Origin: a bacterium
Lineage (GTDB): Bacteria; Patescibacteriota; Microgenomatia; Levybacterales; UBA12049
Direction of reading: 5' to 3'
Length of the DNA: 64,000 bases
Assembly (NCBI GenBank): GCA_021813145.1
Contig: JAKALS010000002.1
Location: 149,862 to 213,861 of the forward strand
The position numbers were made by a program, and so were the translations under genes. A model generated the notes under the pieces. That model had not been told where the DNA came from and did not search any database. It saw nothing but the letters and a program-made list of their open reading frames with translations. The first letter of the stretch is position 1, and every line of letters starts with the position of its first letter. Positions 1-57,673 of this stretch are shown here, piece after piece.

Positions 1-300
1 TTTTATTTCCGTATCGGAATTTAAAAACAAAACAAACTTTCCCGAAGCTTTTTTTACGGCCCTGTTATTCCCCTTCGAAAATCCCAAATTATCTTTATTC
101 TCCAGCAATCTGAAATTGGGAATTTGTAATTTGGGGTTTGAGATTGCAGCTACGCTTTCGTCGGTTGATGCGTTATCGGCCACAATTATTTCCATCTCTC
201 CTTTTTTCAATTCGTTTTCATAATTAGACGATATGGAGTTTATGCAGGAAAGGGTCAGCTCTTTTGTATTGAAGTTTAAGATTACGATGGAAAGCTTCAT
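1..300 (-). CDS. GT2-family glycosyltransferase, N-terminal part (gene continues beyond window start)
   Basis: Manual translation of the minus strand from ATG at 300..298 gives MKLSIVILNFNTKELTLSCI...IIVADNASTDES...NLGFSKGNNRAVKKASGKFVLFLNSDTEIK with no stop before position 1. This is the classic GT2 N-terminus: DxS..D and the 'NxGF..G.N' and 'D(S/A)D' region. Not in the ORF track because it is truncated. Confidence 0.7.
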   Translation of the reverse strand, partial: MKLSIVILNFNTKELTLSCINSISSNYENELKKGEMEIIVADNASTDESVAAISNPKLQIPNFRLLENKDNLGFSKGNNRAVKKASGKFVLFLNSDTEIK

Positions 301-352
301 ATCATTATAAAGTTAACGAATTCTTTAATTTTTGATTTATGACCCAATAGTC

Positions 353-904
353 TTAGCGAAACCATGCTGCACGTCCCAGTCTGTAGTTGAGGTTTCTGTT
401 TTGCCTTTCTCCGATTTCTCTTGCCGGTACTCCGCCCACCACCTTAAATTCTTCTACATCTTTTGTTACAACTGCTCCGGCTCCTATAACCGCACCCTTA
501 TGTAGGGTAACTCCCGGCAAAATTATTGCCCTCGGGCCTATAAATACATAATCTTCGATTATCACCGGAGCAAAAACCGCCCTAAAGGTTTCACTTGCTA
601 TATCATGTTCCCCGTTATAAATCATTACTTCCGAAGCGATATCAACGTGGCTTCCTATGGATAATTTATCCCTTCCGTCTAAAACTGCTTTTTCTCCGAT
701 AATGGTATCTTCTCCTATTTTTATGTTTCTAGGAAAATAAAAGGTTGCTCCCGTATGGATAGTTGAGCCGCTTCCGATTTTAATCCCCCAAAACCTGTAA
801 ACAAATCTTCTAAGATAATGCGAAGGAATTTTACCCGTCAGCGCCAGCTTAAAGCAGACTAATTCCCAAAAAACAGTTTTTAATCTCCTGATAACTTTAT
901 TCAT
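353..904 (-). CDS. hexapeptide-repeat (LbH) sugar O-acetyltransferase
   Basis: 183 aa with repeated [LIV]G..xx[IV] hexapeptides; C-terminal 'IGPRAIILPGVTLHKGAVIGAGAVVTKDVEEFKVVGGVPAR', typical of WbbJ/maltose-acetyltransferase-like enzymes. Confidence 0.8.
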   Translation of the reverse strand: MNKVIRRLKTVFWELVCFKLALTGKIPSHYLRRFVYRFWGIKIGSGSTIHTGATFYFPRNIKIGEDTIIGEKAVLDGRDKLSIGSHVDIASEVMIYNGEHDIASETFRAVFAPVIIEDYVFIGPRAIILPGVTLHKGAVIGAGAVVTKDVEEFKVVGGVPAREIGERQNRNLNYRLGRAAWFR

Positions 905-922
905 ATTTTTATTAAAAATTGG

Positions 923-2062
923 TTAATGCCTTGCAACGCTTTCCAGGATTTGCAAAGTCCTATCCGCCGCCTTTTCCCAGGAAAATTTCTTTACCTGTTC
1001 GTACCCCTTTTTTATTAGCTTATCTCGCAACTCCTCGTTCTGAATTATAGATTCCAAGCTCTTCGCAATATCGTCAGGATCATTAGGGTCAAAATATACC
1101 GCCGCATCTCCCCCCGCCTCGGGAAGACTTGAGACGTTACTTGTTGCCACCGGACATCCGTATTGCATAGCCTCAAGGACCGGCAGGCCGAATCCTTCAT
1201 ACAAACTTGGAAGACAAAAGCACACCGCATTTTTATATAAAGAAGGAAGGTCTTCGTCTGTTACGTTATCGAGGAATTTTACCCGGTTTTCAACCCCGTA
1301 TTTTTTCGGCGCATTAAGTATTTCTTCATATTGCCAGCCTTTCTTTCCCACAACCACTAATTCCAATTCTTTATTTTTTGCTCCATATTTTAATAATGAA
1401 AAGGCTTGAATAAGCTTTGCAATGTTTTTTCTCGGCTGAAGTGTTCCCACAAAGAGGATATATGGCGATGAAATTCCGAATTTTTTATTAAGTTCATCCA
1501 TGTTCTGATTTTTGAATTCCGGACCTTTGATTCCCGGGTAAACGACTTCTATTTTCCCCGCCGGGACTTTATACATTTTGATTATATCATTCTTGCTTGA
1601 ATTGCTGATAGTAATTATTTTTTTTGCCTTTCTTATGGAAAACCCTCCCCATGTTTTTAATTGGTATAAGTCTTTTTTCCTAAATAACTTTGGGAAGAAC
1701 AAATAAGAAACGTCAAGAATTGCAATAACAGAAGGCGCTTTTGTATACAGGGGAAGGTAATGCGTAGGAGAAAAGAAGACATCCAGATCGTAATTCATAA
1801 GCTTTTTTGACAACCCGAGCATTGTCCAGAGCTTTTTTGAGGAAAAAACTTCGTATTTCCAGTTCTCCCTCTCCTTGGGCATGTCAAAAGAAGGAGGAAC
1901 CGGAAGGAATAGAGAATATTCATTTCTATCGTCTCTTTTTGCCAATTCGCTAAGGATTCTGTAACCGAATTCGCTGCTTCCGACCCTATTGGGAAGTCCG
2001 GTTTCTTTATTAAAACCGAATCTGGGGACCACTGCTTCGTAACCGTTAATACCAATTTTCAT
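923..2062 (-). CDS. glycosyltransferase family 4 (GT-B, group 1)
   Basis: 379 aa; C-terminal 'EGFGLPVLEAMQYGCPVATSNVSSLPEAGGDAAVYFDPND' is the canonical GT4 E-x7-E region. Confidence 0.85.
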   Translation of the reverse strand: MKIGINGYEAVVPRFGFNKETGLPNRVGSSEFGYRILSELAKRDDRNEYSLFLPVPPSFDMPKERENWKYEVFSSKKLWTMLGLSKKLMNYDLDVFFSPTHYLPLYTKAPSVIAILDVSYLFFPKLFRKKDLYQLKTWGGFSIRKAKKIITISNSSKNDIIKMYKVPAGKIEVVYPGIKGPEFKNQNMDELNKKFGISSPYILFVGTLQPRKNIAKLIQAFSLLKYGAKNKELELVVVGKKGWQYEEILNAPKKYGVENRVKFLDNVTDEDLPSLYKNAVCFCLPSLYEGFGLPVLEAMQYGCPVATSNVSSLPEAGGDAAVYFDPNDPDDIAKSLESIIQNEELRDKLIKKGYEQVKKFSWEKAADRTLQILESVARH

Positions 2063-2631
2063 ATTCCTGGGTATACCACCTCCAGCCTGTCTTTTTCTAT
2101 TCCCAAAATTTCATTTGCGTCTTCTAAGGTTGCCTTAGATATACAAAAAATTTTGTCCGTTTCTTTTTTAACCCAATTTAATTTTCTTTTTTGTGAAGCC
2201 ACAATATTTGGCGAAATCAAAAGCTTAAAAGGGTTAAATTCTGTTTTTTTATGGGTTTCCTCAGGATATTTATAAACTATCAAATCATAAAGTATTGTCA
2301 CTTTTTTAGCTTTCTTTGCGGGCGGCTCCGTCCAGTCGGAGGTGATAAATACATCTATGTCTCCTATGAAATTTTCAACGGGTAAGATATGAAGCCTGTT
2401 CCAAAGAAAATCCAAAAATGTAGGGGGCAGACGAAACTCTTTAATTTTTACATTACTGCCGTTTTTAATTTTCAGATTTTGTCTATCAAGTTTATTCCTA
2501 AGAGATGAATAAAATAAGACAAACTCATCTTCATTATTTTTTTCTATTAAAGCCTTCACGAGGTTTAGAAGATAATTTGATACACCGGTATTTGGATAGG
2601 CCAGCTGAGAAATGTCTATTCCAATCTTCAT
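2059..2631 (-). CDS. GT4 N-terminal-domain-only protein (truncated paralog of downstream GT4)
   Basis: 190 aa starting MKIGID like the downstream gene (MKIGIN). It ends at '...RLEVVYPGI*', exactly the linker motif ('KIEVVYPGIKGPEF') where the C-terminal domain begins in the neighbour. 4-bp ATGA overlap with the downstream start. Confidence 0.55.
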   Translation of the reverse strand: MKIGIDISQLAYPNTGVSNYLLNLVKALIEKNNEDEFVLFYSSLRNKLDRQNLKIKNGSNVKIKEFRLPPTFLDFLWNRLHILPVENFIGDIDVFITSDWTEPPAKKAKKVTILYDLIVYKYPEETHKKTEFNPFKLLISPNIVASQKRKLNWVKKETDKIFCISKATLEDANEILGIEKDRLEVVYPGI

Positions 2632-2648
2632 ATCTTACTAAATATTGT

Positions 2649-3587
2649 TTATGAACTTGCATAACGAAGTTCATCTCGGTTTACAACTTCCCCGTTATTC
2701 TTTTCGGAGATATGCAATATCAAATCCGCCAAAAACCCCGTAAAAAACAATTGAAGCCCGGCAATAACCAAAAGTATTCCGAATGTCAAAAGAGGCCTGT
2801 CTCCAATAGTCTTTCCCTGAAAATGTAAAATTGTCAAATATATAAGGACAAAAAAACCTATCAAAGATGTTATTCCGCCTACGGCTCCGAAGAAATGAAG
2901 CGGCCTTTTTGCATAACGGGATAGAAAAAGAATGGTAAACATGTCGGGAACATCCCTGAAGATTTTTGAGAATCCGTACTTTGATTTTCCGTAAAGTCTC
3001 TTCTCGTGGGCTACCGGAATTTCGGTAACTTCAAATCCTCTTTCGGCCGCAAGAAGAGGAATAAATCTGTGCATTCCTCCGTAAAGGTTCAGGCTTTTTG
3101 CAGTTTCCTTTGTATAGAGTTTCAATCCGCAGTTGTAATCGTGAAGATGAACTCCCCAGAAAGAGCTCATCACAAAGTTGAATAATTTTGAAGACAGCCT
3201 TGTTTTTAAAGCGTCCTTTCTGTCTTTTCTCCAGCCCGAAACAAGGTCAAACCCTTCTTTGGATTTATCAAGAAGTTTTTTAATTTCCTCGGGCCTGTCC
3301 TGAAGATCCGCATCAAGGGTTACTACATAATCCCCTTTTGCCATTTTAAAACCGAGTGTTAAGGCTTCCGCCTTACCATGATTTTTCCTGAAGGAATAAA
3401 TCCTAATATGCTTGTCTTTAGCCTCAAGTTTCTTCAGAATATTGAATGAGGAATCTGTTGAGCCGTCGTCCACAAAAACAACTTCGTAGTCCTTATCCAA
3501 CTTAAAAAGGTTAGAGGCTAAAACAGGATAGAATTTTTCAAGGCTTTCCTCCTCGTTATATACGGGAACAACCGCGCTTATTAGCAT
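2649..3587 (-). CDS. GT2 polyprenyl-phosphate glycosyltransferase (GtrB/ArnC/Dpm1-like) with C-terminal TM helices
   Basis: 312 aa; 'ISAVVPVYNEEESL...VVFVDDGSTDSS...KNHGKAEAL...VVTLDADLQD' followed by two hydrophobic C-terminal helices, as in ArnC/GtrB. Confidence 0.85.
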   Translation of the reverse strand: MLISAVVPVYNEEESLEKFYPVLASNLFKLDKDYEVVFVDDGSTDSSFNILKKLEAKDKHIRIYSFRKNHGKAEALTLGFKMAKGDYVVTLDADLQDRPEEIKKLLDKSKEGFDLVSGWRKDRKDALKTRLSSKLFNFVMSSFWGVHLHDYNCGLKLYTKETAKSLNLYGGMHRFIPLLAAERGFEVTEIPVAHEKRLYGKSKYGFSKIFRDVPDMFTILFLSRYAKRPLHFFGAVGGITSLIGFFVLIYLTILHFQGKTIGDRPLLTFGILLVIAGLQLFFTGFLADLILHISEKNNGEVVNRDELRYASS

Positions 3588-4018
3588 AATTTATTTTTAC
3601 AATATAAGTATTAGCTTAGATTTAGCTTAATACTTGAATAATCTAACTAATGCAATTTTACCATTTCCTCTTCCTATAGTCTAATTGCGGAACGAGGCTT
3701 AATAAATTATAAAAACGGTTTTAAAAGGCAAAACCTAACTTAAGAAGCCTACAACCTAAACTTCCCTCTTATTTTTATCCTGCCTGCTAGGACAAATGCC
3801 AAAGCTAATCTTGGACAAAATTCGTGCGTAAATTCCATTTTATATTTCCTCTCTTTTCTATATAAATATATTATATAGAGGAAGGACGAATAAGCGAACA
3901 GAAAATAAGTCTTATGTTATAATTCCAGAAAATATCCTTAAATTAACCTGCCTCCATAAAACAACAAACTGCCGTTAAACTTTCTGCCTTTTAAAATTTC
4001 CAAGTATCAGTAATTAAG

Positions 4019-4876
4019 ATGTATTACAAAAACTTACCGGAGGTGACAAAGAAACAAGAAGAAATAATAAACTTTATCTTTAAGTTCAGGTTCGCGAATA
4101 GAATTCAGGTCCAAAAAGAGCTTAATCATAAAGATGCAAGACGAATTAATGCCTGGCTTAAGGACCTTGTTGACAAGAAATACCTGGGCAGGATTTACTC
4201 CCATAAGCTTTTGGAAAATACCAAACCTGCAATTTATTACCTCGAGAACAACGGAATAATTTATGTAAAAAGAGAAAAGGGGTTCCAATACAAAAGCCCC
4301 AACGATGAGTTAGAAACAAAACAAGTAAAAAAATTCTACGATGACAAAAAAGCTTCAAAAACTTTTATTGAACACTGCATTTGTGTTTGTAATGTCTATC
4401 TTGAAATAAAAAAAATTGAAAAAAATAGAAAGAATATTTCATATGATTTTCTGACAAAAACAGAAATATGGATACAAAAACAAATGGAGGAAAATTTTTG
4501 GGAAAGAAAAGTTTACATTCCCGATCTTTACATTGAAGCTGTTCAGCAAACAAAAATAAAAATTCAAATAGACCCTTTTTTTCTTGAAGTATTTGACCCT
4601 CAAGTCCCAAGATATGCAATAAGATATAAGATTAAAAAATACATACAATTTATCGAAGAAGAAATTTGGAAAAATGATTCTCTCATTGAGGATGATACCC
4701 CCTACTTTCTTCTGGTTATTTCGGATCAGAGGAAGCTCAGAAGTATTAAAAAATTTATCGAGAAAGAACTTGCTTACAGTCCTAGGGAAAATATTTTTTT
4801 TGCGCTTACTACAATTGATAAAGCAATAACTATTTCAACGGTAAAAAACCCTTGGGAAGAAATCAATAATGATTAA
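4019..4876 (+). CDS. replication-relaxation family (Replic_Relax-like) protein; plasmid/ICE-associated
   Basis: 285 aa. The N-terminal 'EEIINFIFKFRFANRIQVQKEL...ARRINAWLKDLVDKKYLGRI....KPAIYYLENNG' matches the winged-helix pattern of the replication-relaxation family as I remember it. One of only three plus-strand genes; sits in an AT-rich block flanked by a 430-bp AT-rich intergenic region. Confidence 0.5.
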   Translation: MYYKNLPEVTKKQEEIINFIFKFRFANRIQVQKELNHKDARRINAWLKDLVDKKYLGRIYSHKLLENTKPAIYYLENNGIIYVKREKGFQYKSPNDELETKQVKKFYDDKKASKTFIEHCICVCNVYLEIKKIEKNRKNISYDFLTKTEIWIQKQMEENFWERKVYIPDLYIEAVQQTKIKIQIDPFFLEVFDPQVPRYAIRYKIKKYIQFIEEEIWKNDSLIEDDTPYFLLVISDQRKLRSIKKFIEKELAYSPRENIFFALTTIDKAITISTVKNPWEEINND

Positions 4877-4908
4877 GGTAATTTAAATAATTTGACAATC
4901 AGTAAATT

Positions 4909-5964
4909 CTAGGAAAGAAGGCTTTTAAATTTTGTGCTTAAGAAAAAATATTTTTTTGAAAGATAACTGCCAAAAATTTTTTGTAAAAATTTATCATAAG
5001 TTAGAAGATTTCCTGGTTTTTTTCTATATTCTATTGCCGCTTGAAAAGTACCTATAACCAAAAAGAAATAAGTCCACATCGAAGAATTCTCTGCAATAAG
5101 ATTTAAATTAAAAATTAACAAGAAGGGAACAAGAATTAAAAAGGCTAATGCCAATAAAAATGAAACAGAACTTTCCAAACGGTAAAAAATAACAAGAAAA
5201 ATCCACAAAATTATTAAAGTTAATTCAACATCCCTGTTAATCTGTTGCATAAAAAATACAAAGGTTAATACTCCTAATAAAAATACTTCCACTAATATAT
5301 AATTTTGCGAAACTAGTAAGCTTTTTCTGAAAAATAACCAAACTAAATATAAAATTAATGGCAAAAGATAAATACTTGAAGAAACAGCAAAATTAATATC
5401 TGAAAAAGAATAAAAGATTTTTTTGATCAAAAATATAGGAATCCTTGTTTTGTTAGCCAATAGTTCGGACTTAGTAAACTGAAATTCTGTTACAAATGTA
5501 GGACTTAAAGAGCTTAATGCTATTGCATTACCAGGCTTTCCCTTTTGAGACTGAATTTCAAAAGTATAGTTTTTATTTTTAGAATTAGTTATTATCGGGA
5601 ACCCAAACGTAAAAAGTTCATTCGGTTGAAACTGATCAACCTTATAGGAATGTACATAATACCAATTTTTAGATGGGTTTTCCTTTATTCTAAATGTAAC
5701 AATATCCTGACTGATATTATCAAAATTAAAAAATCTTACCCCTACAATACCTAAATTATTTTCTTTCGACTTAAAGCTGCCAATAATTTTTTGCCCTTTT
5801 AAAAGTTCATTTGTATTAAAATTTTTTATATTAGATTGACCATAACCGTTTACAAAAACACTCAAGCTATAATTTGAGGCAAAAAATAAAGACATAAAAA
5901 GCCAAAACCCAACTAACAATAGAGGAATTAAAAACAAAGAAGTAGTCTTCTTTAAGCTATTCAT
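4909..5964 (-). CDS. membrane protein, unknown function (N-terminal TM, ~170-aa extracytoplasmic domain, C-terminal multi-TM)
   Basis: 351 aa, hydrophobic segments at N- and C-terminus; no recognisable catalytic motif. Confidence 0.5.
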   Translation of the reverse strand: MNSLKKTTSLFLIPLLLVGFWLFMSLFFASNYSLSVFVNGYGQSNIKNFNTNELLKGQKIIGSFKSKENNLGIVGVRFFNFDNISQDIVTFRIKENPSKNWYYVHSYKVDQFQPNELFTFGFPIITNSKNKNYTFEIQSQKGKPGNAIALSSLSPTFVTEFQFTKSELLANKTRIPIFLIKKIFYSFSDINFAVSSSIYLLPLILYLVWLFFRKSLLVSQNYILVEVFLLGVLTFVFFMQQINRDVELTLIILWIFLVIFYRLESSVSFLLALAFLILVPFLLIFNLNLIAENSSMWTYFFLVIGTFQAAIEYRKKPGNLLTYDKFLQKIFGSYLSKKYFFLSTKFKSLLS

Positions 5965-5982
5965 TTTTATTTATTATATCAG

Positions 5983-8785: not shown

Positions 8786-8786
8786 A

Positions 8787-14587: not shown

Positions 14588-16353
<1,766 letters not shown>

Positions 16354-36571: not shown

Positions 36572-36595
36572 TTCTAATGATTAGAATCATTAGAA
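36572..36595. promoter_or_regulatory. perfect 11-bp inverted repeat with 2-nt spacer (ttctaatgatt-ag-aatcattagaa) between the YfhO-like gene and the downstream GT2 gene
   Basis: Read directly from sequence at 36572..36595; overlaps the stop codon of 36590..38863; no adjacent U-run on the transcribed strand. Confidence 0.4.
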
Positions 36596-48544: not shown

Positions 48545-50279
48545 ACCTTTTTCGGGCTGAAAGAATTATACCAGCAATAAGTGCCGCTATTCCAGCAACA
48601 GAAATTAAATCGGATAAAAGCTCTACGGGAGTCTGCGAGTATTTGAGTTGTATTTGATGAATTCCCGGAGAAACTTTAATCCCGACGCCGTTATCCAAAA
48701 CCGACAATTTATAGATATTGCCGTCAATATACGCACTCCAGAATGGGAAATAGGCAACGGGAATAACGATTGAAGAAAGATTTTTGCTTTCGGCGGTAAA
48801 CGCATACTTAACGGGAGTGCGGGTAATATTTTTTATGTTTACGTTGCCCTTTTTTACTATTACTTTTCCGTTTGAGATTTGAGAAGGATTTTCGGGCACC
48901 AAAAAATCCGAAGGCATATACTCGTGCGTAAGATTAGAGGCAAACCAGGAAATTGCATACTTTGTTGTGTATTTCCCGGAATTTTCGGAGTATATTCCGC
49001 TATATTCTCCGGAAGCCGTAGGAAGGATAGGAGAAGTTATAAAGTATTTCGAACTTACAAAAATTAAAAAGGCTAAAAGTACTGTTGCAACTCCAAAATC
49101 TAGATAAGAAGCATATTTTTTAAAGGGAAAAAATCGAAAAAACCATACAGAAGAGCCTGCCAAAAGAGAGGAAAAAAATGAAGCCATTACAAGAAATCTC
49201 CAGGGAAACTGGAAAAATGCCATAAGTCTTATTGAGTCCCACAAGGGTTTTGAAATCTGAAGCGTTAAAACTGCGGAAAAAACAAACCCCAGAAACAATA
49301 ATAAAATTATATAAAAATTTTCAGAATCTTTTCTGAATTTTTTTATCAAAAGTAATATAAAGGCGGAAACTGCCGAGGCAAAAGAAAGAATTATATGAAG
49401 TTTACCTATCATAAAAGACAAACCGTCGTTGCATCCGGGAACCGAACCGCCAAATCCCCACGGGCTTGTCCAAAGCTGCCCGGGACATACAAAATTATCC
49501 CAGTAACTAAAGCCGCCCTGTCCTATCTGCGAGAGGACATTTGTATATTTCATTTCCGAAAGTGCGGGCAACCAGTAAAAACAGGAAATAAGAGCTCCGA
49601 ATATCAAAACCCAAAAGGGGTTAAAAGAAACTTTTTTTTCTTTTTTAAAAGAAGCCAGAAATAAAACCAGGATTAAAAGCAATAGAAAAGGAGACACCAT
49701 CATCGCGGTAAGATTATGTGAAAGAATTATTCCCGCAAAGCCCAGCGCTCCTATAGCCGCATTTTTAAAATTATTTTCCTTATATGTTTTTATAACCCCA
49801 TAAAAAGCAAGAGGAATAAATGCGTATGCCCAAAATTCCGCAACATCCCCTCTTACATATATATCGACCGCATGGTACGGTGCATAAACATAAAATAAAG
49901 CCGCAACAACTCCTGCGGCTTTTCCGAAGAGCTCCTTTCCCAATAAATACATGAAAATGCCGGAAAGAAGTATTCCCAGCCCCATCATAAGTTTTGCCGA
50001 AATAAGCACATTAAATCCCAAAAGATTAAAAAATGAACCCGAATAGTAGGCAAGAGGCGCGTAGAAATTAAAAATCGGATAACCGAAGCCGAACCCTAGA
50101 TCCATTGACCATCTTACGGGAAACATGCCGGCATTCAGGGATTTGGTCATTTCAAAAACTCTTTGAACCTGGGTATCGTCGTGTACTGGGAAAAGGCCCG
50201 GCGAAAGCAAAGGCCTTATTGCCCAGAAAGAAAGAACCAATACGATTATTATAGGCAAAATTATTTTTACAACTTTCAT
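48537..50279 (-). CDS. polytopic membrane protein, GT-C-like paralog family B
   Basis: 580 aa; 'LLSPGLFPVHDDTQVQRVFEMTKSLNAGMFPVRWSMDLGFGFGYPIFNFYAPLAYY'. Confidence 0.5.
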   Translation of the reverse strand: MKVVKIILPIIIVLVLSFWAIRPLLSPGLFPVHDDTQVQRVFEMTKSLNAGMFPVRWSMDLGFGFGYPIFNFYAPLAYYSGSFFNLLGFNVLISAKLMMGLGILLSGIFMYLLGKELFGKAAGVVAALFYVYAPYHAVDIYVRGDVAEFWAYAFIPLAFYGVIKTYKENNFKNAAIGALGFAGIILSHNLTAMMVSPFLLLLILVLFLASFKKEKKVSFNPFWVLIFGALISCFYWLPALSEMKYTNVLSQIGQGGFSYWDNFVCPGQLWTSPWGFGGSVPGCNDGLSFMIGKLHIILSFASAVSAFILLLIKKFRKDSENFYIILLLFLGFVFSAVLTLQISKPLWDSIRLMAFFQFPWRFLVMASFFSSLLAGSSVWFFRFFPFKKYASYLDFGVATVLLAFLIFVSSKYFITSPILPTASGEYSGIYSENSGKYTTKYAISWFASNLTHEYMPSDFLVPENPSQISNGKVIVKKGNVNIKNITRTPVKYAFTAESKNLSSIVIPVAYFPFWSAYIDGNIYKLSVLDNGVGIKVSPGIHQIQLKYSQTPVELLSDLISVAGIAALIAGIILSARKRYE

Positions 50280-51799
50280 TTAATTAGTATTTTCCTATCT
50301 TTTACAAGTAAAATCAAAATTAAAATCAATCCCAGAAAAGATAGCATGTCCGAAAATAATCTTAGGGGTGTTTCGGTAAAATAAATTTCTATATTGTGAT
50401 TTCCTTTGTTAACGGTAAATCTTATAAGTCCGTTAGTTTTATAATCTATAGCTGTTTTCATATTATCAACCTTTACTACCCATCCCGGAAAATAAACCGA
50501 GTTATACTGAAGAACCGAATACGAAGATGTGTTGATAAAAAGGGTAGTTTTGTTTCCGTTTGTAAAAAGATTCTGTACCTTTGCGTTTCCTTTTATAACC
50601 GTTATTTTTGAGGTTTGGTCTGTTGGGATATTCTTAACCCATTTTGGCATATATTCGTTTTTTACGGTTGTCGTATCCTGATTGGTGGAATAAAAAGTAT
50701 CCGGGTAATACTGGTAATTTTGAGGAACAAGAAAATCCTTTGCCGAATAAAGAATCACCCCTATAAATAAAACGGCAAAAAGTATTTTTATTTTGCCTTT
50801 GAGTAAATTAATCTGAGAAGCCGCAAGAAAAGAAGCTCCCAAAAGCACATAAGATATTAACCTGAACGGAAACTGTATATACGATGTAAAAGGGAAATAT
50901 TTCCAAAAAAGCGAAGTTACTGGAAATACAAACAGAGCAGTTATTAATGTTGTTGTCAAAAAATAAATAGTCTCTTTTTTCCTGTCGAAATAAAGAAGAG
51001 CAAAAGAACATAAAACGATTACAAAAAATACGGGACCCAAAAGATTCAGGTCTTTTAAGTTTAAAAAATATCCGGAGAAATCGGAAACGGGAGTTTTGTC
51101 AAAAACCGTAAACTGCTTATCGTATAAAGCGGGCAGCCAGAAAAAGGCAGATAATAAAAGTCCCAAGACAAAAGACTTAAACATAAAAAGAATCTCTTTT
51201 TTTAAGAGCATGTAAAGGATTAAAAACGGGAAAAAGATAAAAGCAAGAGTGTTATGCGCAGTGACAAGAAGCGCTATGCCAAGACCTGTAAATATATAAT
51301 TTTTTCTCTCGGTCTGCCAAAATATAAAAGGCGCAATAGATAGAGCAAGAACTTCACCGACAGATCCTCTTTTATAAACATCGTAAAGGTGATAAGGAAA
51401 AAGAGTGTAAAGAGTTGCTCCGACAAACGAAGAGATATTATCAAAAAATTTCCTAAGCCATAGATAGGTAAAGACAGAAGAAAACAGTAAAGAAAGACCA
51501 AGTATGACCTTTATCGTATCAACAAAATTAAATCTTAGGATATGAATCAAAACGCCGATATACATAAAAAGCGGATACAAAAAATCGGCGACGGGATAAC
51601 CGAAACCGTCATTAAGCCTCGGAAGATATCTTACGGGAAACTGTCCGTTGCGCAAAGCCTCGTAAAAAGCCGAAAACCTTATTACCATCCAGTTTCCGTC
51701 ATCTGTTGCAAAGAAACCCGGATGCAACAGTCCGATAAGAGCCGGAACGACAAAAATTAACGAGAGACATAAAAAAATAATATTACTTCTTTTTTTCAT
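50276..51799 (-). CDS. polytopic membrane protein, GT-C-like paralog family B
   Basis: 507 aa; 'LLHPGFFATDDGNWMVIRFSAFYEALRNGQFPVRYLPRLNDGFGYPVADFLYPLFMY'. Confidence 0.5.
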   Translation of the reverse strand: MKKRSNIIFLCLSLIFVVPALIGLLHPGFFATDDGNWMVIRFSAFYEALRNGQFPVRYLPRLNDGFGYPVADFLYPLFMYIGVLIHILRFNFVDTIKVILGLSLLFSSVFTYLWLRKFFDNISSFVGATLYTLFPYHLYDVYKRGSVGEVLALSIAPFIFWQTERKNYIFTGLGIALLVTAHNTLAFIFFPFLILYMLLKKEILFMFKSFVLGLLLSAFFWLPALYDKQFTVFDKTPVSDFSGYFLNLKDLNLLGPVFFVIVLCSFALLYFDRKKETIYFLTTTLITALFVFPVTSLFWKYFPFTSYIQFPFRLISYVLLGASFLAASQINLLKGKIKILFAVLFIGVILYSAKDFLVPQNYQYYPDTFYSTNQDTTTVKNEYMPKWVKNIPTDQTSKITVIKGNAKVQNLFTNGNKTTLFINTSSYSVLQYNSVYFPGWVVKVDNMKTAIDYKTNGLIRFTVNKGNHNIEIYFTETPLRLFSDMLSFLGLILILILLVKDRKILIK

Positions 51800-54158
51800 A
51801 AAATCTTGTAATAAAAAATATTATAAGCAATAAGCCTAAGGATGCGCCCGAAAGAGCTATTCCCCGTACAAAACTAACCGGGTCGTAAGAAAAGACAACG
51901 TTATGTTCTCCTTTTGGAACGGCAACGGCCCTAAACGAATAGTCGGCCCTTAATAAATTTGTCTTAACCCCGTCTACGTATGCGCTCCATTCGGGGTAAT
52001 AATTATCCGAGAGAAAGAGCAAAGAATTCCCGTTTGTTTTTACCGAAAAGCTTACTTCGTTTGCAGTATATGACAAAAGCCGTACGCCGCCTTTTGAATT
52101 TTTATCTATCTTAATACCGGGACTCTTCTCCAAAAGTAAAGTTTTTCTCAAGTCTATCCCACTGTAAATTGAGCTTAGGATATGACTCCTATTTTCTACT
52201 TTAAAGTTATTTGCAAGAAAAAATCTCGGGAGAGCATTTTTATTTTCGTAGACTTGCCAGGGATAAACTTTGTAAACAAGCGAATATTCTTTTTCGGGGA
52301 AGGTCGTCAAATCTGGTTGTTCCCATGCTCCTAAAAGCTGCTGTTTTTGAAGAACATATTTAACTCCCAGAAGGTTAAGAACAGTTTGCCTGAAACCGTT
52401 ATTTTTTAAATCGTCAGGTCCGTAACCCGGCGCTATATTAGCATCGGGCCTTGGTAAAACTTCAGGAAGTGTTCCGGTTTTTGAAGAAGCCAAAAGCTCG
52501 GTATAGGCTGCAATATGTAAAGGGTCGTTTCCCTCGGGCGAATAAGTCCCGTCGACACTTTGGTAATTTGCAGGTATATAGCCGGAACCGTAACCCCAGA
52601 ATCTGTTTATTCCCGCGGTTTCTTTTATATAAGAGATTATGGGCGTGTTCGGATAAGTAAGCTGCGCCGGTGAGAAAGGCGTAATTTTATTGAAAAAATA
52701 AAAAAGGTCAAAGCTTACCAATAACAAGACAATAATAAAAGCCAGATTCTTATTTACTCTTTTAAGGTAAAAAGCAACCAGAATGCCAAAGGCCAGAACA
52801 GTAGGCAGAATCAGGTTATGCTTTGTTACCGAGATATTTGAAGGATCAATAGCAATAAATTTAGGAAGTAAAAATACTACGCCCCAGATAAGAGCATAAA
52901 AAATAACAAAAAATACAGGGAAAAGCGATTTATAATTTTTTTCTTTTAACCAGTTGTCTATCCCCAAAGCCCCCAAGATTATTACCGAAAAAATAAATAT
53001 ATTAAGTTCTCTTGTCGGAACAGTTGTCGAGACCATCGGGATAGGCAAAAGGTATAAAAATTTTATTCCCGGTAAATTTGAGGCGATTATCAAAGATAAA
53101 AACGCAAGGACAGAAAAGAAAAATTTTTCCGGATTTTTGGATTTGAAAACAGAATAAATCGCAAAAAACAAAATCCCAACTCCGGCGTACATAACTGTTT
53201 CTATATATGTACCGTTATACCAATAGTTCCTTGTTGCAGGATTTCCGAAAAAGTCCGGAACAAAAGCTGTTATCCAATAATAAAAAGGGGCGAGCATTTT
53301 TGATATCTGGCCAAGAGTATAAGCTCCCCTTGTGGAATCGGAAAACAACACAAGCGTTGGGTAAAGTTGAAAAAAAGTCAAAGCTATGGGAAATATTAAC
53401 GAAACAGCAAAGAGAAAGTTTCTTTTATGTTTTAAGGTTCTTTTTTTATCCCTAAAAAATAGAAACAGGAAATAAAGAAAGCTTATTACATAAATATAAA
53501 AAACTCCCTGTATGTATCCAGCAAGAAATGAAACCGAAATAATAAGTGTTAGTATTAAAAAATCAAGAGACGAAAATTTTTCGTAAAGCCTTTTTACAAA
53601 AAGCAAAATAAACGGAAGCCATAAAAGAGTACTCCCGATATTGCCGTACTCTATCCAGACAGTCATATATGAAGAGAAAGCAAAGGCAATACCCCCTATA
53701 ATAGATGCCTGTTTTGAAAGCGACAATCCCCTGCAAAGAAAAAGGTACATAAAAATAGCGGCAAGAAAAGGCTGGAGCATAATAATAATTGTCCAGGCAA
53801 GATTAAAAGGCAGGCCAAGGTACAAAAGATTGAAAGGATAAAAAAGACCTGTCTGGAAATTGGCAAGCTGCGGATTGCCGGAAAAATTATGCGGGTTCCA
53901 GAAAGGAATGCTTCCTCCTTTAACCTGACTAATAGAAAAATAACGCCAGGGGTATATCTCGTTTATTACATCCGGGCCCTGAGCTTTATTGGGATACCCA
54001 CCGGGAGGAAAACCCAGATAAGACTGTGTATTATAAGGATTTTCGCTTACCAGAAGGTCTCCGGGAAAAGGAATTTGTCCCTTAAAAACAGGATAAAAAA
54101 ATAGGCAGACGACAACGGATATCAGAAGAAAAGACCAGAACTTTTTTATCTTATTCAT
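51783..54158 (-). CDS. YfhO-family membrane glycosyltransferase-like protein (paralog 3 of 3)
   Basis: 791 aa; 'DVINEIYPWRY...IPFWNPHNFSGNPQLANFQTGLFYPFNLLYL'. Confidence 0.55.
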   Translation of the reverse strand: MNKIKKFWSFLLISVVVCLFFYPVFKGQIPFPGDLLVSENPYNTQSYLGFPPGGYPNKAQGPDVINEIYPWRYFSISQVKGGSIPFWNPHNFSGNPQLANFQTGLFYPFNLLYLGLPFNLAWTIIIMLQPFLAAIFMYLFLCRGLSLSKQASIIGGIAFAFSSYMTVWIEYGNIGSTLLWLPFILLFVKRLYEKFSSLDFLILTLIISVSFLAGYIQGVFYIYVISFLYFLFLFFRDKKRTLKHKRNFLFAVSLIFPIALTFFQLYPTLVLFSDSTRGAYTLGQISKMLAPFYYWITAFVPDFFGNPATRNYWYNGTYIETVMYAGVGILFFAIYSVFKSKNPEKFFFSVLAFLSLIIASNLPGIKFLYLLPIPMVSTTVPTRELNIFIFSVIILGALGIDNWLKEKNYKSLFPVFFVIFYALIWGVVFLLPKFIAIDPSNISVTKHNLILPTVLAFGILVAFYLKRVNKNLAFIIVLLLVSFDLFYFFNKITPFSPAQLTYPNTPIISYIKETAGINRFWGYGSGYIPANYQSVDGTYSPEGNDPLHIAAYTELLASSKTGTLPEVLPRPDANIAPGYGPDDLKNNGFRQTVLNLLGVKYVLQKQQLLGAWEQPDLTTFPEKEYSLVYKVYPWQVYENKNALPRFFLANNFKVENRSHILSSIYSGIDLRKTLLLEKSPGIKIDKNSKGGVRLLSYTANEVSFSVKTNGNSLLFLSDNYYPEWSAYVDGVKTNLLRADYSFRAVAVPKGEHNVVFSYDPVSFVRGIALSGASLGLLLIIFFITRFYEKKK

Positions 54159-55690
54159 TATTGCGGCAAAATCTGATAAACCCTATAAAGATAATTACTG
54201 TTTCCTTCTGACACTTGAAATATTAATTTAAGCGGAAAATTTTGAGGAATTACCTGGTGCTCGGGCTGGTAGAAAATGAAATAGGAGGGCATCTTTTTTG
54301 CATATGCCAAAGCCTCGGCAGGCAACTGGTTTCCGATAGGCCAAAATCCTTTTATTGTTACATTCGGATTTTGTATAAGGTACAATTCCATGGATTCGGG
54401 CATAAGACCGAAGGTGCCTTCTGTCCCTATAAATATTTTTCCGCTCATGGCTTTCTGACTGAAGAATTCTACGCTTTTTCTTACTCCCCAACCCGCAGAC
54501 CAGCTTCCTATATACTGGTTGTAATCGCTGTCTGCGATTGAAGCTTTTACGGGGTTTTGGGCAAATACAAAAGAAACGTATCCCGAATAAGCTACAAAGA
54601 TCAAAACAATAATAAAACTAAGGATTATTTTTGAACTTAAAGTTTTTAAATTCAGTTTTTCAATAATATAAACGGTTATATAATCCAATGACCAGGCCGC
54701 CAAAGGAAGAAGAAAAAGGCTCATAAAATATATAAACCTCGGAAATATAACTCTTCCGAAAAGCGCCAGTCCTACAAACGGAAATGCAAAATATGCCAAT
54801 AAAAGCAATTTTTCCCTCGGATACCTAAAGATAAAAACAATCGAAAAAAGAATAAGAAGAATATACGGAAGCTTAAGATATTGGACAAGCCAACTGAAAA
54901 GCCCGTGAAGATTTCCCACAAAAAACGTAAACGGGTGGTGTATCCACTGCGAGAATGGATAGACAAATACGGCATTTTTTGCCGATATCATTTCAAAAAG
55001 CGGAGAAAGCCTTAGAACAGAATACAGAATCTGGGAAATAACAACCGCAAATAATAAATAGAGAATTAATCTTATAATCCTGTTCTTTAAAAACTTGGAT
55101 TTAAAATCAAATAAAAGGACAAGAAAAGGCATTGAATATATGCTGAAAAAATCGGAGGTTTTGGTAAGAGTTCCTGCACCTATAACAAAACCCAGGGTAT
55201 AGGCTATATCCAGCCTTATTCTCCTTACAAGAAGAACAGAAAAATATAATGCCCAAACAGCAAGAGTTCCGACCATTCCATCCATCAAGGCCATTCTGTC
55301 GTATACCTGGGCAAAAGGATAAAAAACGTAAAGTATTGCGGTAAAAAAAGCTATTTTTCTGTTTTTAAAAAGCTCAAAGCTCAACAGCCAAAGCCCTGTC
55401 ATTGTAAAAAAACCCGAAAGCACAGAAACGAGTCTTCCGGCAAGTAGCGGATCTTTTATAAACTTCATAAAAACCATCATGAACCAGACAAAAAGAGGCT
55501 GCTTACCGTCCGTTAATGAAATAAACCTCCAGGAAGAGTCATGAAGGGCAATCTGAGCCCAACGAAGATATATTGCCTCGTCGGTGAACATGGGAAGAGT
55601 TTCCAGAAAAACCAGCCTTAATATGAAATATGCCGCGGAAATCAAAAGAGCAAGAATGATTTCGTTTCTGAATTTTGAAATCAAATTCAT
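54158..55690 (-). CDS. GT39/GT83 (ArnT/PMT-like) glycosyltransferase
   Basis: 510 aa; 'LETLPMFTDEAIYLRWAQIAL' (loop-1 D-E-A motif), more than 10 TM helices. Confidence 0.6.
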   Translation of the reverse strand: MNLISKFRNEIILALLISAAYFILRLVFLETLPMFTDEAIYLRWAQIALHDSSWRFISLTDGKQPLFVWFMMVFMKFIKDPLLAGRLVSVLSGFFTMTGLWLLSFELFKNRKIAFFTAILYVFYPFAQVYDRMALMDGMVGTLAVWALYFSVLLVRRIRLDIAYTLGFVIGAGTLTKTSDFFSIYSMPFLVLLFDFKSKFLKNRIIRLILYLLFAVVISQILYSVLRLSPLFEMISAKNAVFVYPFSQWIHHPFTFFVGNLHGLFSWLVQYLKLPYILLILFSIVFIFRYPREKLLLLAYFAFPFVGLALFGRVIFPRFIYFMSLFLLPLAAWSLDYITVYIIEKLNLKTLSSKIILSFIIVLIFVAYSGYVSFVFAQNPVKASIADSDYNQYIGSWSAGWGVRKSVEFFSQKAMSGKIFIGTEGTFGLMPESMELYLIQNPNVTIKGFWPIGNQLPAEALAYAKKMPSYFIFYQPEHQVIPQNFPLKLIFQVSEGNSNYLYRVYQILPQ

Positions 55691-55721
55691 ACAACGATTA
55701 TAGTAAAATCCCCCTCTTCAA

Positions 55722-56900
55722 TCAACGCCTTAAAAGATTTTGCCAAAGGAAATAAAAAGAGGTTAAAACTATCAAAACAATAACACCGGCAACTTCTATA
55801 TTAAAAATTACAAAAGGATAACCTTTTGCGTAATCCGTCATATAAACATACGCTATATAAATAAATGTAGAAAATAGGGAAGCAGCAGCGGAAGGGATAA
55901 AAACATAGTACTTTTTAGGAACAAAAGAAGCCATGGATAAAGGCAAAAGCATGTACCAAGGCTGATAGGTTGTTCTAACCGAAGCAAGTATTACGGTCAA
56001 AAGTGAAAGGAAAAAAGAATAAATAAAAATCTTCTCCCAATCTACCTTCTTTTTTATCTTTTCCAAATACATGAGATAAAAAATTATGGGAACAAACACT
56101 CCCGTTGAAAATTTAACGCCTACGGAAAGTAAATAGAAAATCCCGGAAGCAATTCTTTTCCGCATAAGATACAAATAAACAGACAGAAGAAAAAGAAAAA
56201 TCATCGGAATATCGTTATGGGCCGAGACAAGAGATTCTATTATTACGAGCGGATTAAAAGCGAAAAACGAAAGGTTGATGAACTTATTTTCCGGAAAAAG
56301 CTTATCCGAAATTTTATAGATAAAATAACAGCTTCCAAGATAAGAAAGCCCCATTAAAATTTTGAACATAAAAAAAGTCGGAAGAAAAATATTCATTCCC
56401 AAAAAAGATAAAGGAACGGTAAGCAAAAGCCAGGTCGGACCGTACGGATAAGTCCTATGCGTCCAACGCATAAAGTTAAGCATCGGGTCGCCGGGAAAAT
56501 CCGAGGCCTTGTGGATATAGGGATTTTGGGCGTAATGGGTTATTATTTTTGCGTCGAAAATATAATTAAAAAGATCGTAAGAAAAGGCATTATAGGAAAA
56601 AACAAGAATTATGAAAGTTACGGGGATAAGAATCTTAAAATATTTTAGATTCAATTTATTTTTTAAGGACAAATATAACGTTAAAATATAACACGCAAAT
56701 AAGACCAAAAGTATTATTGTAAAAATTTCCGAGGACAACGGCCTTTGAAAAAAACCAATATACTGGAAATTTTTCTCTATAGTCTGATATATCGAAGCCC
56801 TTGAGAGAGTAAGGCTTAAATCGACTTGAGTAAAAGAATAGAAAAAAAGAACTATTAATGCCGTAACATAAGAGGCAGAAAGAAGCCACAACTTTTTCAT
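55722..56900 (-). CDS. polytopic membrane protein, GT-C-like (family unassigned)
   Basis: 392 aa, about 10 TM helices; immediately downstream of and overlapping a Dpm1-like GT2 gene. Confidence 0.4.
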   Translation of the reverse strand: MKKLWLLSASYVTALIVLFFYSFTQVDLSLTLSRASIYQTIEKNFQYIGFFQRPLSSEIFTIILLVLFACYILTLYLSLKNKLNLKYFKILIPVTFIILVFSYNAFSYDLFNYIFDAKIITHYAQNPYIHKASDFPGDPMLNFMRWTHRTYPYGPTWLLLTVPLSFLGMNIFLPTFFMFKILMGLSYLGSCYFIYKISDKLFPENKFINLSFFAFNPLVIIESLVSAHNDIPMIFLFLLSVYLYLMRKRIASGIFYLLSVGVKFSTGVFVPIIFYLMYLEKIKKKVDWEKIFIYSFFLSLLTVILASVRTTYQPWYMLLPLSMASFVPKKYYVFIPSAAASLFSTFIYIAYVYMTDYAKGYPFVIFNIEVAGVIVLIVLTSFYFLWQNLLRR

Positions 56901-57673
56901 AAATTATTGTATTTTCCCTTTATCGCATTAACCTTTATATTTATTAAATCTGTAAAAGCGCTTAAGGAATCTTTAACGGGGCTTACTCTTCTTGATTCGA
57001 CATAAAGCCAGTTAACGGGTACCTCTTTTATCTTATAACCCTCCTTTTGGGCAAGAAAAAGAAGTTCAACATCAAAACCGGCTTTAACTGCCGAACCGGA
57101 AATTGTTTTAAAACCGTGATGAAACTTTTTAAGCTTTTCAAAAAGGTTCAGGGATGATTTTTGGCTGAAAATTTTGAATCCGCACTGGGTATCCGTAACT
57201 CCCTCTATGTTTCCCACAATTACTCTTCTTAAAAATATCATGCCTCTGCCCATTAAAGCTCTTGTCCAGGGAGCTCCTTTTCTTTGGGAGCTTCTGCTTC
57301 CTATTACAATATCATAATCCTTTAAAAAAGGGCTTAATTTGTCTAATTCTTCTATAGGAGTTGCCTGGTCCATATCGGTAAAAAGCCTGTAGTCTCCCTG
57401 AGCTTTTAACATTCCCGCCGTCACTGCGCCCGCTTTTCCCGTATGCGAGTTTTCAAGAAGTATAAAATTATTATTATCTTTTACAAATTTTCTTAAAAAC
57501 TCCTGGCTTCCGTCTGTTGAGCCATCGTCTACGATTATTACCTCGTATTGATATTTTTGCTTTCCCAAAAAATGTCCGACTTTATCGAGTACGCCCTTTT
57601 GGAGATTTGCCATTTCGTTATAACACGGGATTATTACGGAAAGATATATTTTATTCACAAAAGAATTATACAA
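56897..57673 (-). CDS. GT2 Dpm1-like polyprenyl-phosphate sugar synthase (soluble)
   Basis: 258 aa; 'LSVIIPCYNEMANL...EVIIVDDGSTDGS...GKAGAVTAG...FTDMDQA'. Confidence 0.75.
   Translation of the reverse strand: MYNSFVNKIYLSVIIPCYNEMANLQKGVLDKVGHFLGKQKYQYEVIIVDDGSTDGSQEFLRKFVKDNNNFILLENSHTGKAGAVTAGMLKAQGDYRLFTDMDQATPIEELDKLSPFLKDYDIVIGSRSSQRKGAPWTRALMGRGMIFLRRVIVGNIEGVTDTQCGFKIFSQKSSLNLFEKLKKFHHGFKTISGSAVKAGFDVELLFLAQKEGYKIKEVPVNWLYVESRRVSPVKDSLSAFTDLINIKVNAIKGKYNNL

Follow-up and report, generated by a model that had tools for sequence, protein, structure and literature searches.

A locus dense in predicted GT-C-fold glycosyltransferases in Candidatus Levybacteria and the cell-surface glycan it may assemble

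What would a bacterium build with 17 putative membrane glycosyltransferases (GTs) of the GT-C fold encoded in one locus? The question is raised by positions 1-57673 of the window analysed here (a 64,000-nucleotide stretch of contig JAKALS010000002.1), which an earlier note made from the sequence alone had singled out as a 58-kb locus for surface glycosylation of an undescribed kind. Coordinates are window positions, genes are called by their first coordinate, and gene content was examined for 1-57673; the related loci cited by name include L009, L011, L015, L022, L024, L025, L026 and L027, and L019 lies to the left of the window. The cell envelope in the candidate phyla radiation (CPR)/Patescibacteria, in which the host is placed below, is almost uncharacterised, and it forms the interface with hosts in the few members that have been cultured. 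We propose that the block is probably an assembly line for a cell-surface glycan, working for the most part on the membrane's outer face.

Membrane proteins of the GT-C fold

A hydropathy scan for transmembrane (TM) helices returned 20 polytopic membrane proteins in 1-57673: two Wzx flippases, one protein of another kind (4909-5964) and 17 proteins assigned to the GT-C fold by Pfam, NCBIfam, hhalign and fold searches together with the annotation of homologues (Table 1), in line with the 17 to 18 candidates counted in the earlier note. These 17 predicted transferases, with 7-14 TM helices each depending on the hydropathy threshold, come from six sequence families (seven PMT_2, three PTPS_related, three YfhO, two AftD-like, one MptA-like and one without a Pfam family); their catalysis and donor use are likewise predictions. 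The genes occupy 30.3 kb, or 52.6% of the interval. Pfam models of PMT_2, PMT, PTPS_related or YfhO were matched by 12 of the 17, 11 of them above the cut-off and 22687 below it, and the YfhO-type proteins that had been anticipated were recovered as three matches above the cut-off (36590, 40205 and 51783). Beyond the two Wzx flippases, no transporter or permease family was found among the membrane proteins.

Of the 120 homologues closest to 19727, about half carry PF13231 and some are named 'glycosyltransferase family 39' or 'ArnT-like'. There are 1909 representative relatives of 8787, and among nine sampled, five carry PF11847 (GT-C_AftD) above the cut-off and one bears the carbohydrate-binding module CBM_4_9. 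PF11847 itself gave a sub-threshold match to 8787 and none to 5983, and a relaxed Pfam scan (E up to 10) of the unassigned membrane proteins returned only the marginal AftD match of 8787. Local hidden Markov models built from the window paralogues and their orthologues left 5983, 8787, 33665, 4909 and 19727 unlinked to other families; the only link made by hhalign was that of 5983 to the PTPS family. Because sequence searches of the PDB with 5983, 8787 and 33665 (E up to 1) and with 28993 gave no match, a comparison of folds was needed for these four, and in the fold alignments to mycobacterial enzymes sequence identity was just 8-12%. The AlphaFold2 secondary structure of 5983 and 33665 agrees with a polytopic membrane module, and the 5983 type and the 33665 type, both with high-confidence structure models, are predicted to be two GT-C families for which Pfam has no model.

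Two assignments were rejected. Despite its STT3/AglB-like fold, 33665 was not accepted as an oligosaccharyltransferase of the STT3/AglB/PglB kind, as it has no match to a WWDYG-like, DxD, ExD or TIxE/SVSE motif and its gene is tightly paired with a monosaccharide-type synthase (32957). The product of 4909-5964, which the earlier note had taken as GT-C-like, was set aside on its topology (Table 1); a homologue (E 6e-36) lies directly downstream of the 5983-type gene in L022 too.

An acidic first extracytoplasmic loop or the YfhO-type N-terminus had been described for almost all of the membrane proteins. Conservation of the motif was scored over paralogues and orthologues of the YfhO, PTPS, PMT_2 (three groups), MptA-like, 5983 and 33665 families, 8787 and 19727 lying outside this set, and an Asp or Asp-Glu directly past the canonical TM1 was invariant or near-invariant (at least 94%) in each family scored. 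The residues are D34 (94%) and D63 in the YfhO family, D34 in PTPS_related, D39-E40, D37-E38 and D39 in the PMT_2 groups, D27 in the MptA-like family, D31 and D63 in the 5983 family, and D133 in the 33665 family, where it follows three extra N-terminal helices. Since the N-terminal tails are rich in Lys/Arg (2-11 of these and 0-2 acidic residues, except in 54158 and 33665, none), the motif is predicted by the positive-inside rule to face outward. Neither of the outcomes named beforehand as contrary to a glycosylation locus, transporter-like membrane proteins or cytoplasmic acidic motifs, was thus seen.

Candidate donor synthases and flippases

The five GT2 enzymes that had been called Dpm1/GtrB-like (2649, 16399, 32957, 47834 and 56897) kept this assignment. 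The best solved relatives of all five include DPMS (5mlz), GtrB (5ekp) and ArnC, the DPMS matches of 32957, 56897 and 16399 having E values of about 1e-14 to 1e-16, whereas the GT2 enzyme 45479, taken as a control, matched GmaR best and then SunS, with no DPMS, GtrB or ArnC. All NCBIfam matches of the synthases (AglJ, ArnC, PgfS, PpgS) lie under the equivalog cut-offs. By these similarities the five are placed in the DPMS/GtrB/ArnC class as candidate polyprenyl-phosphate-sugar synthases; 2649 has two C-terminal TM helices (236-254 and 269-287), covered by its ArnC match. The two expected Wzx flippases were likewise found by Pfam, and each of their genes adjoins a synthase gene (17253 by 16399, 46393 by 47834), the first of these adjacencies being kept in L026 and L027.

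Four gene pairs of a synthase and a GT-C had been proposed, and genetic linkage is present for three of them: 47834/48537-50279 with an 8-bp overlap, 56897/55722-56900 with a 4-bp overlap (kept in 14 of 14 related loci) and 32957/33665 with a 0-bp gap (kept in L024 and L025). The pairs are retained wherever a related locus extends to them (14/14 and 13/13 loci, plus L024/L025). The fourth, 16399/17253, was rejected as a synthase/GT-C pair, 17253 being a Wzx flippase across a 113-bp gap. The wider idea of one-to-one modules of synthase and transferase for most GT-Cs also fell: because five candidate synthases would serve 17 GT-Cs, most of the latter must share donors.

Extent, conservation and gene content of the block

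The window holds 51 open reading frames (ORFs) of at least 150 residues, 46 of them within 1-57673, where coding density is 96.7%. All genes of this interval lie on the minus strand except 4019-4876 and 39941-40213, and none of its nine intergenic gaps of at least 60 bp falls in the stretch 57673-40205. The right end given in the earlier note, 57673, was upheld, and it is followed by a MarR/HlyD/HlyD/MFS operon, tRNA-Glu and Lon; the left end was not, as the block stretches at least 10 kb past the window edge, to a total of at least 68 kb with at least 18 GT-Cs, and its left boundary lies beyond the stretch examined. The left flank carries genes for a GT2, a 1023-residue Wzy_C-like protein, another PMT_2, a GT4, a GT2, RmlC and two further GT4 enzymes. 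The 1023-residue membrane protein (L019 11455-14526, at about 146.3-149.3 kb of the record) matches the O-antigen-ligase/Wzy_C domain at 30.8 bits (cut-off 31.7) and is kept at 1024 residues in L022. By exact protein matches the window was located on the ENA metagenome contig ERZ27237538 k141_642433 (219,008 bp), the record position being the window position plus 149,875, and three similar contigs of more than 200 kb bear the genes too.

Orthologues of the 791-residue YfhO protein (51783-54158) were found in 15 species-level genomes of GTDB at 47-73% identity. Most of these genomes are labelled Candidatus Levybacteria/Levyibacteriota or Patescibacteria group, a lineage within the Microgenomates group of Patescibacteria in the case of Levybacteria; the remaining labels are 'uncultured Gammaproteobacteria' (four third-party annotation assemblies) and only 'bacterium' (two). 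On sequence grounds, the host is assigned to Candidatus Levybacteria, CPR/Patescibacteria. Wherever the contig reaches, the related loci keep the order synthase, MptA-like, PMT_2, YfhO, PTPS, PTPS, synthase, Wzx, GT2, GT2, (phosphodiesterase), GT2, with additional PMT_2 paralogues inserted in three of them. According to further look-ups in related genomes, the order continues with YfhO, GT4, YfhO, GT2, the 647-residue GT-C and a synthase, then with PTPS and four to five PMT_2 genes accompanied by a methyltransferase, and then with an epimerase, a short PMT_2, GT4, Wzx and a synthase. Genomes differ in their number of tandem PMT_2 paralogues (3 to 5 or more). L015 and L025, which belong to a single NCBI contig, jointly span 39 kb with at least 14 GT-Cs. 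Because this gene order recurs in related genomes, 16.4-57.7 kb is taken to be a backbone conserved across the lineage. The order is kept over most of the block, which implies strong selection, and at 68 kb or more the block would take up some 5-7% of a genome like those of the relatives, where one contig alone extends to at least 0.94 Mb.

Beyond the 16399 synthase, gene content diverges in the related loci, and 1-16.4 kb is classed by its sequence as a low-GC, variable, serotype-like cassette. GC content is 35-38% over most of the block and 26-30% across 4-16 kb, a part that carries rare gene families. A fragment of an rve transposase occupies in L022 the position of the Replic_Relax ORF 4019-4876, and the low-GC stretch beside this ORF has the look of a hotspot for insertions or of a cassette exchanged horizontally. 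L022 has, between its 8787-type and 5983-type genes (3780-7304), split transketolase-like genes in two pairs along with an NTP transferase and two epimerases; this set is not in the present window, and its composition suggests that an unusual sugar, possibly a branched-chain one, is made.

The cytoplasmic complement matches the dozen or so enzymes that had been expected, with 12 GTs (five GT-B, namely four GT4 and 11773; six GT2; one GT11), three methyltransferases and two acetyltransferases. GalE, an Fcl-like enzyme (15406-16341, near the GT11) and one alkaline-phosphatase-superfamily phosphodiesterase (43303-44565) are also encoded, the last being of a type found among the related loci only in L009 and L011. 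One ORF beyond the 12 has the GT4 N-terminal domain only (2059-2631); it lies directly upstream of the complete GT4 gene 923-2062 with a 4-bp overlap, and the same split into 188-190 and 376-379 residues occurs in L020 and L022. The closest solved or curated relatives of the GT2 paralogues 21886, 42551 and 45479 are GmaR (flagellin O-GlcNAc transferase), SunS and ThuS, and the gene at the position of 21886 encodes 760 residues in L026 and L027 versus 258 here. The DUF5652 ORF between a GT4 and a YfhO gene has the same position in L025.

To the right of the block, ORF 57761-58981 (+) encodes 406 residues with no Pfam or NCBIfam match and no TM helix; it begins with the tandem repeat 'NWPIEDPxDGRGFxF' in two copies and has a homologue in one related locus only (L015). 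An EmrAB-like operon at 58983-62741 (-) combines genes for a MarR regulator and an MFS transporter with two HlyD-family ORFs in a row (387 and 215 residues); since the same two-ORF arrangement is kept in related genomes, the HlyD split is not a frameshift. The tRNA-Glu(CTC) gene at 62838-62912 (+), followed by the C-terminal part of Lon, was the only match of tRNA and Rfam scans, which found no RNA gene inside the locus.

Table 1. Features of 1-57673 with their predicted assignments and the matches behind them (E, E value; cut-off, that of the model named).
Position	Strand	Predicted assignment	Basis and remarks
353-904	-	WcaF-like hexapeptide-repeat sugar O-acetyltransferase	Pfam Hexapep; NCBIfam WcaF family E 6e-34, below cut-off
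923-2062	-	GT4 (GT-B) cytoplasmic glycosyltransferase	Pfam Glycos_transf_1 E 4e-41
2059-2631	-	190-residue ORF, GT4 N-terminal domain only	Pfam Glyco_transf_4
2649-3587	-	ArnC/GtrB-type polyprenyl-phosphate glycosyltransferase	PDB ArnC E 1e-46 full length, GtrB E 4e-30; NCBIfam ArnC E 1.5e-53
4019-4876	+	Replication-relaxation family ORF, mobile-element remnant, no glycosylation gene	Pfam Replic_Relax E 4e-10
4909-5964	-	Membrane protein, no assigned family, not GT-C-like	1 N-terminal TM, 158-residue outer loop, 3-4 C-terminal TMs
5983-8244	-	AftD-like GT-C without Pfam family	11 TM helices, beta-rich outer domain, C-terminal TM anchor
8264-8785	-	WcaF-like hexapeptide acetyltransferase	Pfam, NCBIfam
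8787-11075	-	AftD-type GT-C	12-14 TM helices, outer domain, C-terminal TM; own Pfam match E 0.043
11172-11771	-	S-adenosylmethionine (SAM)-dependent methyltransferase	Pfam Methyltransf_11
11773-12828	-	GT-B-type glycosyltransferase	Pfam Glyco_trans_1_2 E 6e-25
12829-13605	-	DUF268-type methyltransferase	
13720-14532	-	GT11 (alpha-1,2-fucosyltransferase family)	Pfam Glyco_transf_11 E 3e-34
14588-15427	-	GT2 glycosyltransferase	
15406-16341	-	GDP-L-fucose-synthase-like epimerase/reductase	NCBIfam Fcl E 1e-86, below cut-off
16399-17139	-	Soluble DPMS-like synthase candidate adjoining Wzx	PDB DPMS E 7e-14 (residues 5-207), GtrB
17253-18575	-	Wzx-type MOP flippase	Pfam Polysacc_synt, Polysacc_synt_3; 10 TM helices
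18644-19711	-	GT4 glycosyltransferase	
19727-20926	-	Short (399 residues) PMT_2/GT39-like GT-C	Own PMT match E 0.0024, below cut-off
20905-21867	-	UDP-glucose 4-epimerase GalE	NCBIfam TIGR01179, 396 bits (cut-off 262)
21886-22662	-	GT2, GmaR/SunS-like group	Paralogue of 42551 and 45479
22687-24336	-	PTPS_related-type GT-C	Pfam E 4e-5, below cut-off; paralogue of 48537 and 50276, E 1e-61 to 1e-64
24308-25672	-	PMT_2 GT-C	Pfam above cut-off; also weak EpsG match
25746-27239	-	PMT_2 GT-C	Pfam above cut-off
27248-28987	-	PMT_2 GT-C, tandem paralogue 1 of 3	Pfam above cut-off; D-W-D-E loop-1 motif
28993-30690	-	PMT + PMT_2 GT-C, tandem paralogue 2 of 3	PMT 40.5 bits, PMT_2 44.1 bits, both above cut-off; W-D-E loop-1 motif
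30674-32383	-	PMT_2 GT-C, tandem paralogue 3 of 3	Pfam above cut-off
32380-32955	-	SAM-dependent methyltransferase	
32957-33664	-	Soluble DPMS/AglJ-like synthase candidate	NCBIfam AglJ E 2e-36; PDB DPMS, GtrB, ArnC
33665-35605	-	GT-C without Pfam family, 647 residues	STT3/AftA-like overall architecture, C-terminal globular domain
35593-36528	-	GT2 glycosyltransferase	
36590-38863	-	YfhO-family GT-C	Pfam YfhO (PF09586) 75.5 bits (cut-off 28.5)
38860-39912	-	GT4 glycosyltransferase	
39941-40213	+	DUF5652 small membrane protein, 90 residues, 2 TM helices	Pfam E 1e-23
40205-42547	-	YfhO-family GT-C	Pfam YfhO 97.7 bits (cut-off 28.5)
42551-43306	-	GT2, GmaR/SunS-like group	
43303-44565	-	Alkaline-phosphatase-superfamily phosphodiesterase/pyrophosphatase	Pfam Phosphodiest E 8e-29
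44562-45482	-	GT2 glycosyltransferase	
45479-46390	-	GT2, GmaR/SunS-like group, one TM helix	PDB GmaR E 1e-17, then SunS
46393-47847	-	Wzx-type MOP flippase directly downstream of 47834 synthase	Pfam Polysacc_synt_3 E 6e-49; NCBIfam MOP flippase and O-glycosylation flippase, below cut-off
47834-48544	-	Soluble ArnC-like synthase candidate	PDB ArnC E 3e-16 (residues 4-217), GtrB, DPMS; NCBIfam ArnC E 2e-21
48537-50279	-	PTPS_related GT-C	Pfam 41.9 bits (cut-off 26.4); invariant D34
50276-51799	-	PTPS_related GT-C	Pfam above cut-off
51783-54158	-	YfhO-family GT-C, 791 residues	Pfam YfhO 93.6 bits (cut-off 28.5)
54158-55690	-	PMT_2 GT-C	Pfam above cut-off; invariant D37-E38
55722-56900	-	MptA-like (GT87-type) GT-C	NCBIfam TIGR03459 E 2e-15, far below curated cut-off; invariant D27
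56897-57673	-	Soluble DPMS-like synthase candidate, first gene of block	PDB DPMS E 2e-14, GtrB, ArnC

What the block may build, and how it compares

In multi-component transmembrane glycosylation a GT-A enzyme makes an undecaprenyl-phosphate (C55-P) sugar, a flippase moves the sugar lipid and a GT-C bearing an acidic motif in an outer loop transfers the sugar to a polymer, and a variant is known in which a soluble GT-A works with a Wzx flippase (GacI/GacK; PMC8035078). With families, folds, gene order and conservation laid out above, donor identity, flipping, transfer, acceptor and product can be proposed as follows. On the inner face of the membrane, the five synthases would charge polyprenyl phosphate with single sugars taken from nucleotide sugars, and the Wzx proteins would flip the lipid-linked sugars, the GacK-type variant being suggested because no GtrA is present. 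Outside the membrane, the GT-Cs would then add the flipped sugars to an envelope glycan as it grows and possibly to surface proteins as well. In parallel, cytoplasmic enzymes (GT2, GT4, GT11, GalE, the Fcl-like enzyme and the methyl- and acetyltransferases) may build and decorate a lipid-linked oligosaccharide, to be flipped by Wzx and polymerised or ligated by the 1023-residue Wzy_C-like protein left of the window. Because five donors would feed 17 transferases, this logic of few lipid-sugar donors and many transferases appears by analogy closer to the assembly of mycobacterial arabinogalactan and lipomannan/lipoarabinomannan (LM/LAM) than to systems that decorate with a single sugar.

Several observations weigh against this proposal. 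The GT-C calls of 22687, 19727 and 8787 combine sub-threshold direct Pfam matches with paralogy or the annotation of homologues, that of 55722 comes from an NCBIfam MptA match far below threshold, and the outward orientation of the acidic motifs stands on the positive-inside rule. The hydropathy scan found TM helices absent from four of the five synthases, and no GtrA- or GacJ-like small membrane ORF was found in 1-57673 that could supply a GacJ-like partner, the only small membrane ORF seen being the DUF5652 ORF on the opposite strand. A Wzx beside a synthase could instead flip oligosaccharides linked to undecaprenyl diphosphate. Finally, neither an initiating phosphoglycosyltransferase nor an LCP-type ligase, a chain-length regulator or a candidate acceptor protein was found in the roughly 74 kb examined.

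Were the block devoted mainly to protein O-glycosylation, its PMT_2/PMT-like GT-Cs, and perhaps 33665, would act on Ser/Thr-rich regions of S-layer proteins, pilins or other surface proteins. The seven PMT_2-type GT-Cs, four of which have a D-E loop-1 motif, and the match of 28993 above the PMT cut-off are in keeping with this, as are the resemblances of 2649 to PgfS (E 5e-43) and of 46393 to an 'O-glycosylation flippase' (E 2e-29), both below cut-off, and of three cytoplasmic GT2 enzymes to GmaR and SunS, which glycosylate proteins or peptides; the Wzy_C domain seen in the left-flank protein is also found in PglL-type O-oligosaccharyltransferases. As the main function we nevertheless regard it as unlikely, since no candidate acceptor gene lies in or beside the locus, glycans or teichoic acids are the known acceptors of the AftD-like, MptA-like and YfhO families, a carbohydrate-binding module occurs in one relative of 8787, 33665 lacks the WWDYG motif of oligosaccharyltransferases, and 17 transferases far exceed the needs of any known system of this type. 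Precedents exist in actinobacterial Pmt and in the streptococcal GtrB/PgtC2 and Pgf systems (10.1101/2024.05.05.592596), and for the PMT_2 members such an activity is plausible and compatible with the assembly of a surface glycan; the two do not exclude each other. Less probable still is that each GT-C adds a single side-chain sugar to a teichoic-acid- or rhamnan-like polymer made elsewhere, as CsbB/GtcA/YfhO and GacI-L do, with the paralogues serving as alternative or phase-variable decorations that evade recognition by phages or hosts. The synthase/GT-C pairs are laid out like such decoration modules (PMC8035078; PMC5836110), and the three YfhO-family proteins, the differing number of tandem PMT_2 paralogues and the variable left cassette would suit them. 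However, no teichoic-acid or rhamnan backbone genes, TagB/F-type enzymes or ABC exporter were seen in the roughly 74 kb examined, and most GT-C genes stand in a fixed order at 47-73% identity across the lineage, which speaks for a fixed multi-step pathway and not for interchangeable options. The AftD-like and MptA-like families, moreover, are chain-building enzymes in mycobacteria.

An ordinary Wzx/Wzy cluster for O-antigen, exopolysaccharide or capsule, in which the membrane proteins would be Wzy polymerases, ligases and transporters, could account for two Wzx, many GT2 and GT4 enzymes, the acetyl- and methyltransferases, GalE and the Fcl-like enzyme near the GT11, the Wzy_C-like protein in the left flank and the weak EpsG match of 24308. 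The 17 membrane proteins, however, fall in PMT_2, PTPS_related, YfhO, AftD and MptA GT-C families and none is a transporter or Wzy; no initiating phosphoglycosyltransferase (Bac_transf/WecA-type) or chain-length regulator (Wzz) was found in the window or the 10-kb left flank, and the single Wzy-like protein is encoded outside the window and falls just under its cut-off. An assembly artefact, through a chimeric contig or collapsed or expanded repeats, might be suspected of a contig that comes from a metagenome, drops in GC across 4-16 kb and has counterparts in a second sample whose contigs break near the block. Against it, the same genes are found on four contigs of more than 200 kb, their order recurs at 47-73% protein identity in independent metagenome-assembled genomes of other studies, L022 has a stretch syntenic with the low-GC part, and the paralogues are diverged instead of being identical repeats. 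We consider the ordinary cluster very unlikely and the artefact even more so, and both effectively excluded.

If the block is indeed an assembly line for a surface glycan, a further step can be ventured with due hesitation. Levybacteria, and perhaps other Microgenomates, might conceivably build their main envelope polymer almost wholly outside the membrane with at least 18 GT-Cs, as a new heteropolysaccharide or lipoglycan; such a polymer might be akin in logic to mycobacterial arabinogalactan/LAM and evolutionarily independent of it, a suggestion that we make equally tentatively. Levybacteria are small-genome, probably host-dependent bacteria, and under this possibility the glycan coat together with the variable left cassette would decide host attachment or phage exposure. 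The five candidate lipid-sugar synthases and 17 GT-Cs of the locus form a target set for finding the glycan displayed.

The earlier note had held the system to be undescribed. The class of mechanism is a known one, multi-component transmembrane glycosylation in its Wzx variant (PMC8035078), with mycobacterial GT-C pathways of like donor logic as further precedent, and that part of the claim was given up; the scale, the density in a single locus and the CPR host were not found in the literature searched. What appears to be new is the presence of 17 GT-Cs of six families in 58 kb, their conservation across a CPR lineage and the two GT-C families without a Pfam model. Searching the literature on CPR, Patescibacteria, Levybacteria or Microgenomates for GT-C, YfhO, mannosyltransferase, S-layer or glycosylation returned no description of such a locus, which, the searchable literature being incomplete, is absence of evidence only. 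We know of no single bacterial locus with so many GT-C genes, a statement of our knowledge and not a measured record.

With GtrA/B/V, CsbB/GtcA/YfhO and GacI/J/K/L (PMC8035078; PMC5836110) the block shares a candidate GT-A enzyme from the DPMS/GtrB/ArnC class, a putative flippase and a predicted GT-C whose outer loop bears an acidic motif, as well as adjacent synthase and GT-C genes, YfhO members and the combination of soluble GT-A and Wzx known from GacI/GacK. Those systems are one to three dispersed modules, whereas here 17 GT-Cs of six families, five synthases and two flippases share one locus that has no GtrA/GacJ-like component, in a CPR bacterium with a small genome. Three-component pentofuranose systems of O-antigens and capsules likewise place a polyprenyl-phosphate-sugar synthase and a GT-C beside a conventional polysaccharide cluster, but add a single side-chain sugar and occur in Gram-negative bacteria (PMC11127046). 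In streptococcal protein O-glycosylation (GtrB/PgtC2 and Pgf; 10.1101/2024.05.05.592596) an undecaprenyl-phosphate-sugar synthase and a GT-C act on extracytoplasmic Ser/Thr-rich regions, a pairing of enzymes predicted here too, where 2649 resembles PgfS; the present block differs in having far more transferases and no acceptor protein gene seen in or beside it. The rhamnose-rich cell-wall polysaccharide loci of lactococci and streptococci (PMC9574508, PMC10821137) are, like this one, large monoderm loci that mix cytoplasmic GTs, flippases and GT-C modules and have a conserved and a variable part. They contain one to three GT-Cs, an ABC exporter and rhamnan-synthesis genes, whereas the window has no ABC exporter and the only rhamnose gene is the RmlC of the left flank.

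In mycobacteria and corynebacteria, arabinogalactan and LM/LAM are made with Ppm1 and decaprenyl-phosphate-arabinose (DPA) donors by AftA-D, EmbA-C, MptA/B, PimE and Pmt. The differences from our block are these: identity in fold alignments is only the 8-12% given above, the direct Pfam AftD match is sub-threshold for 8787 and missing for 5983, the mycobacterial genes are dispersed on the chromosome with at most a handful clustered, and YfhO and PTPS_related lie outside the mycobacterial pathway. What that pathway has in common with the locus described here is that a few polyprenyl-phosphate-monosaccharide donors would feed many GT-Cs by which an extracytoplasmic polymer is built and branched, and the likeness extends to the AftD-like 5983 and 8787, the MptA-like 55722 and the AftA-like fold of 33665.

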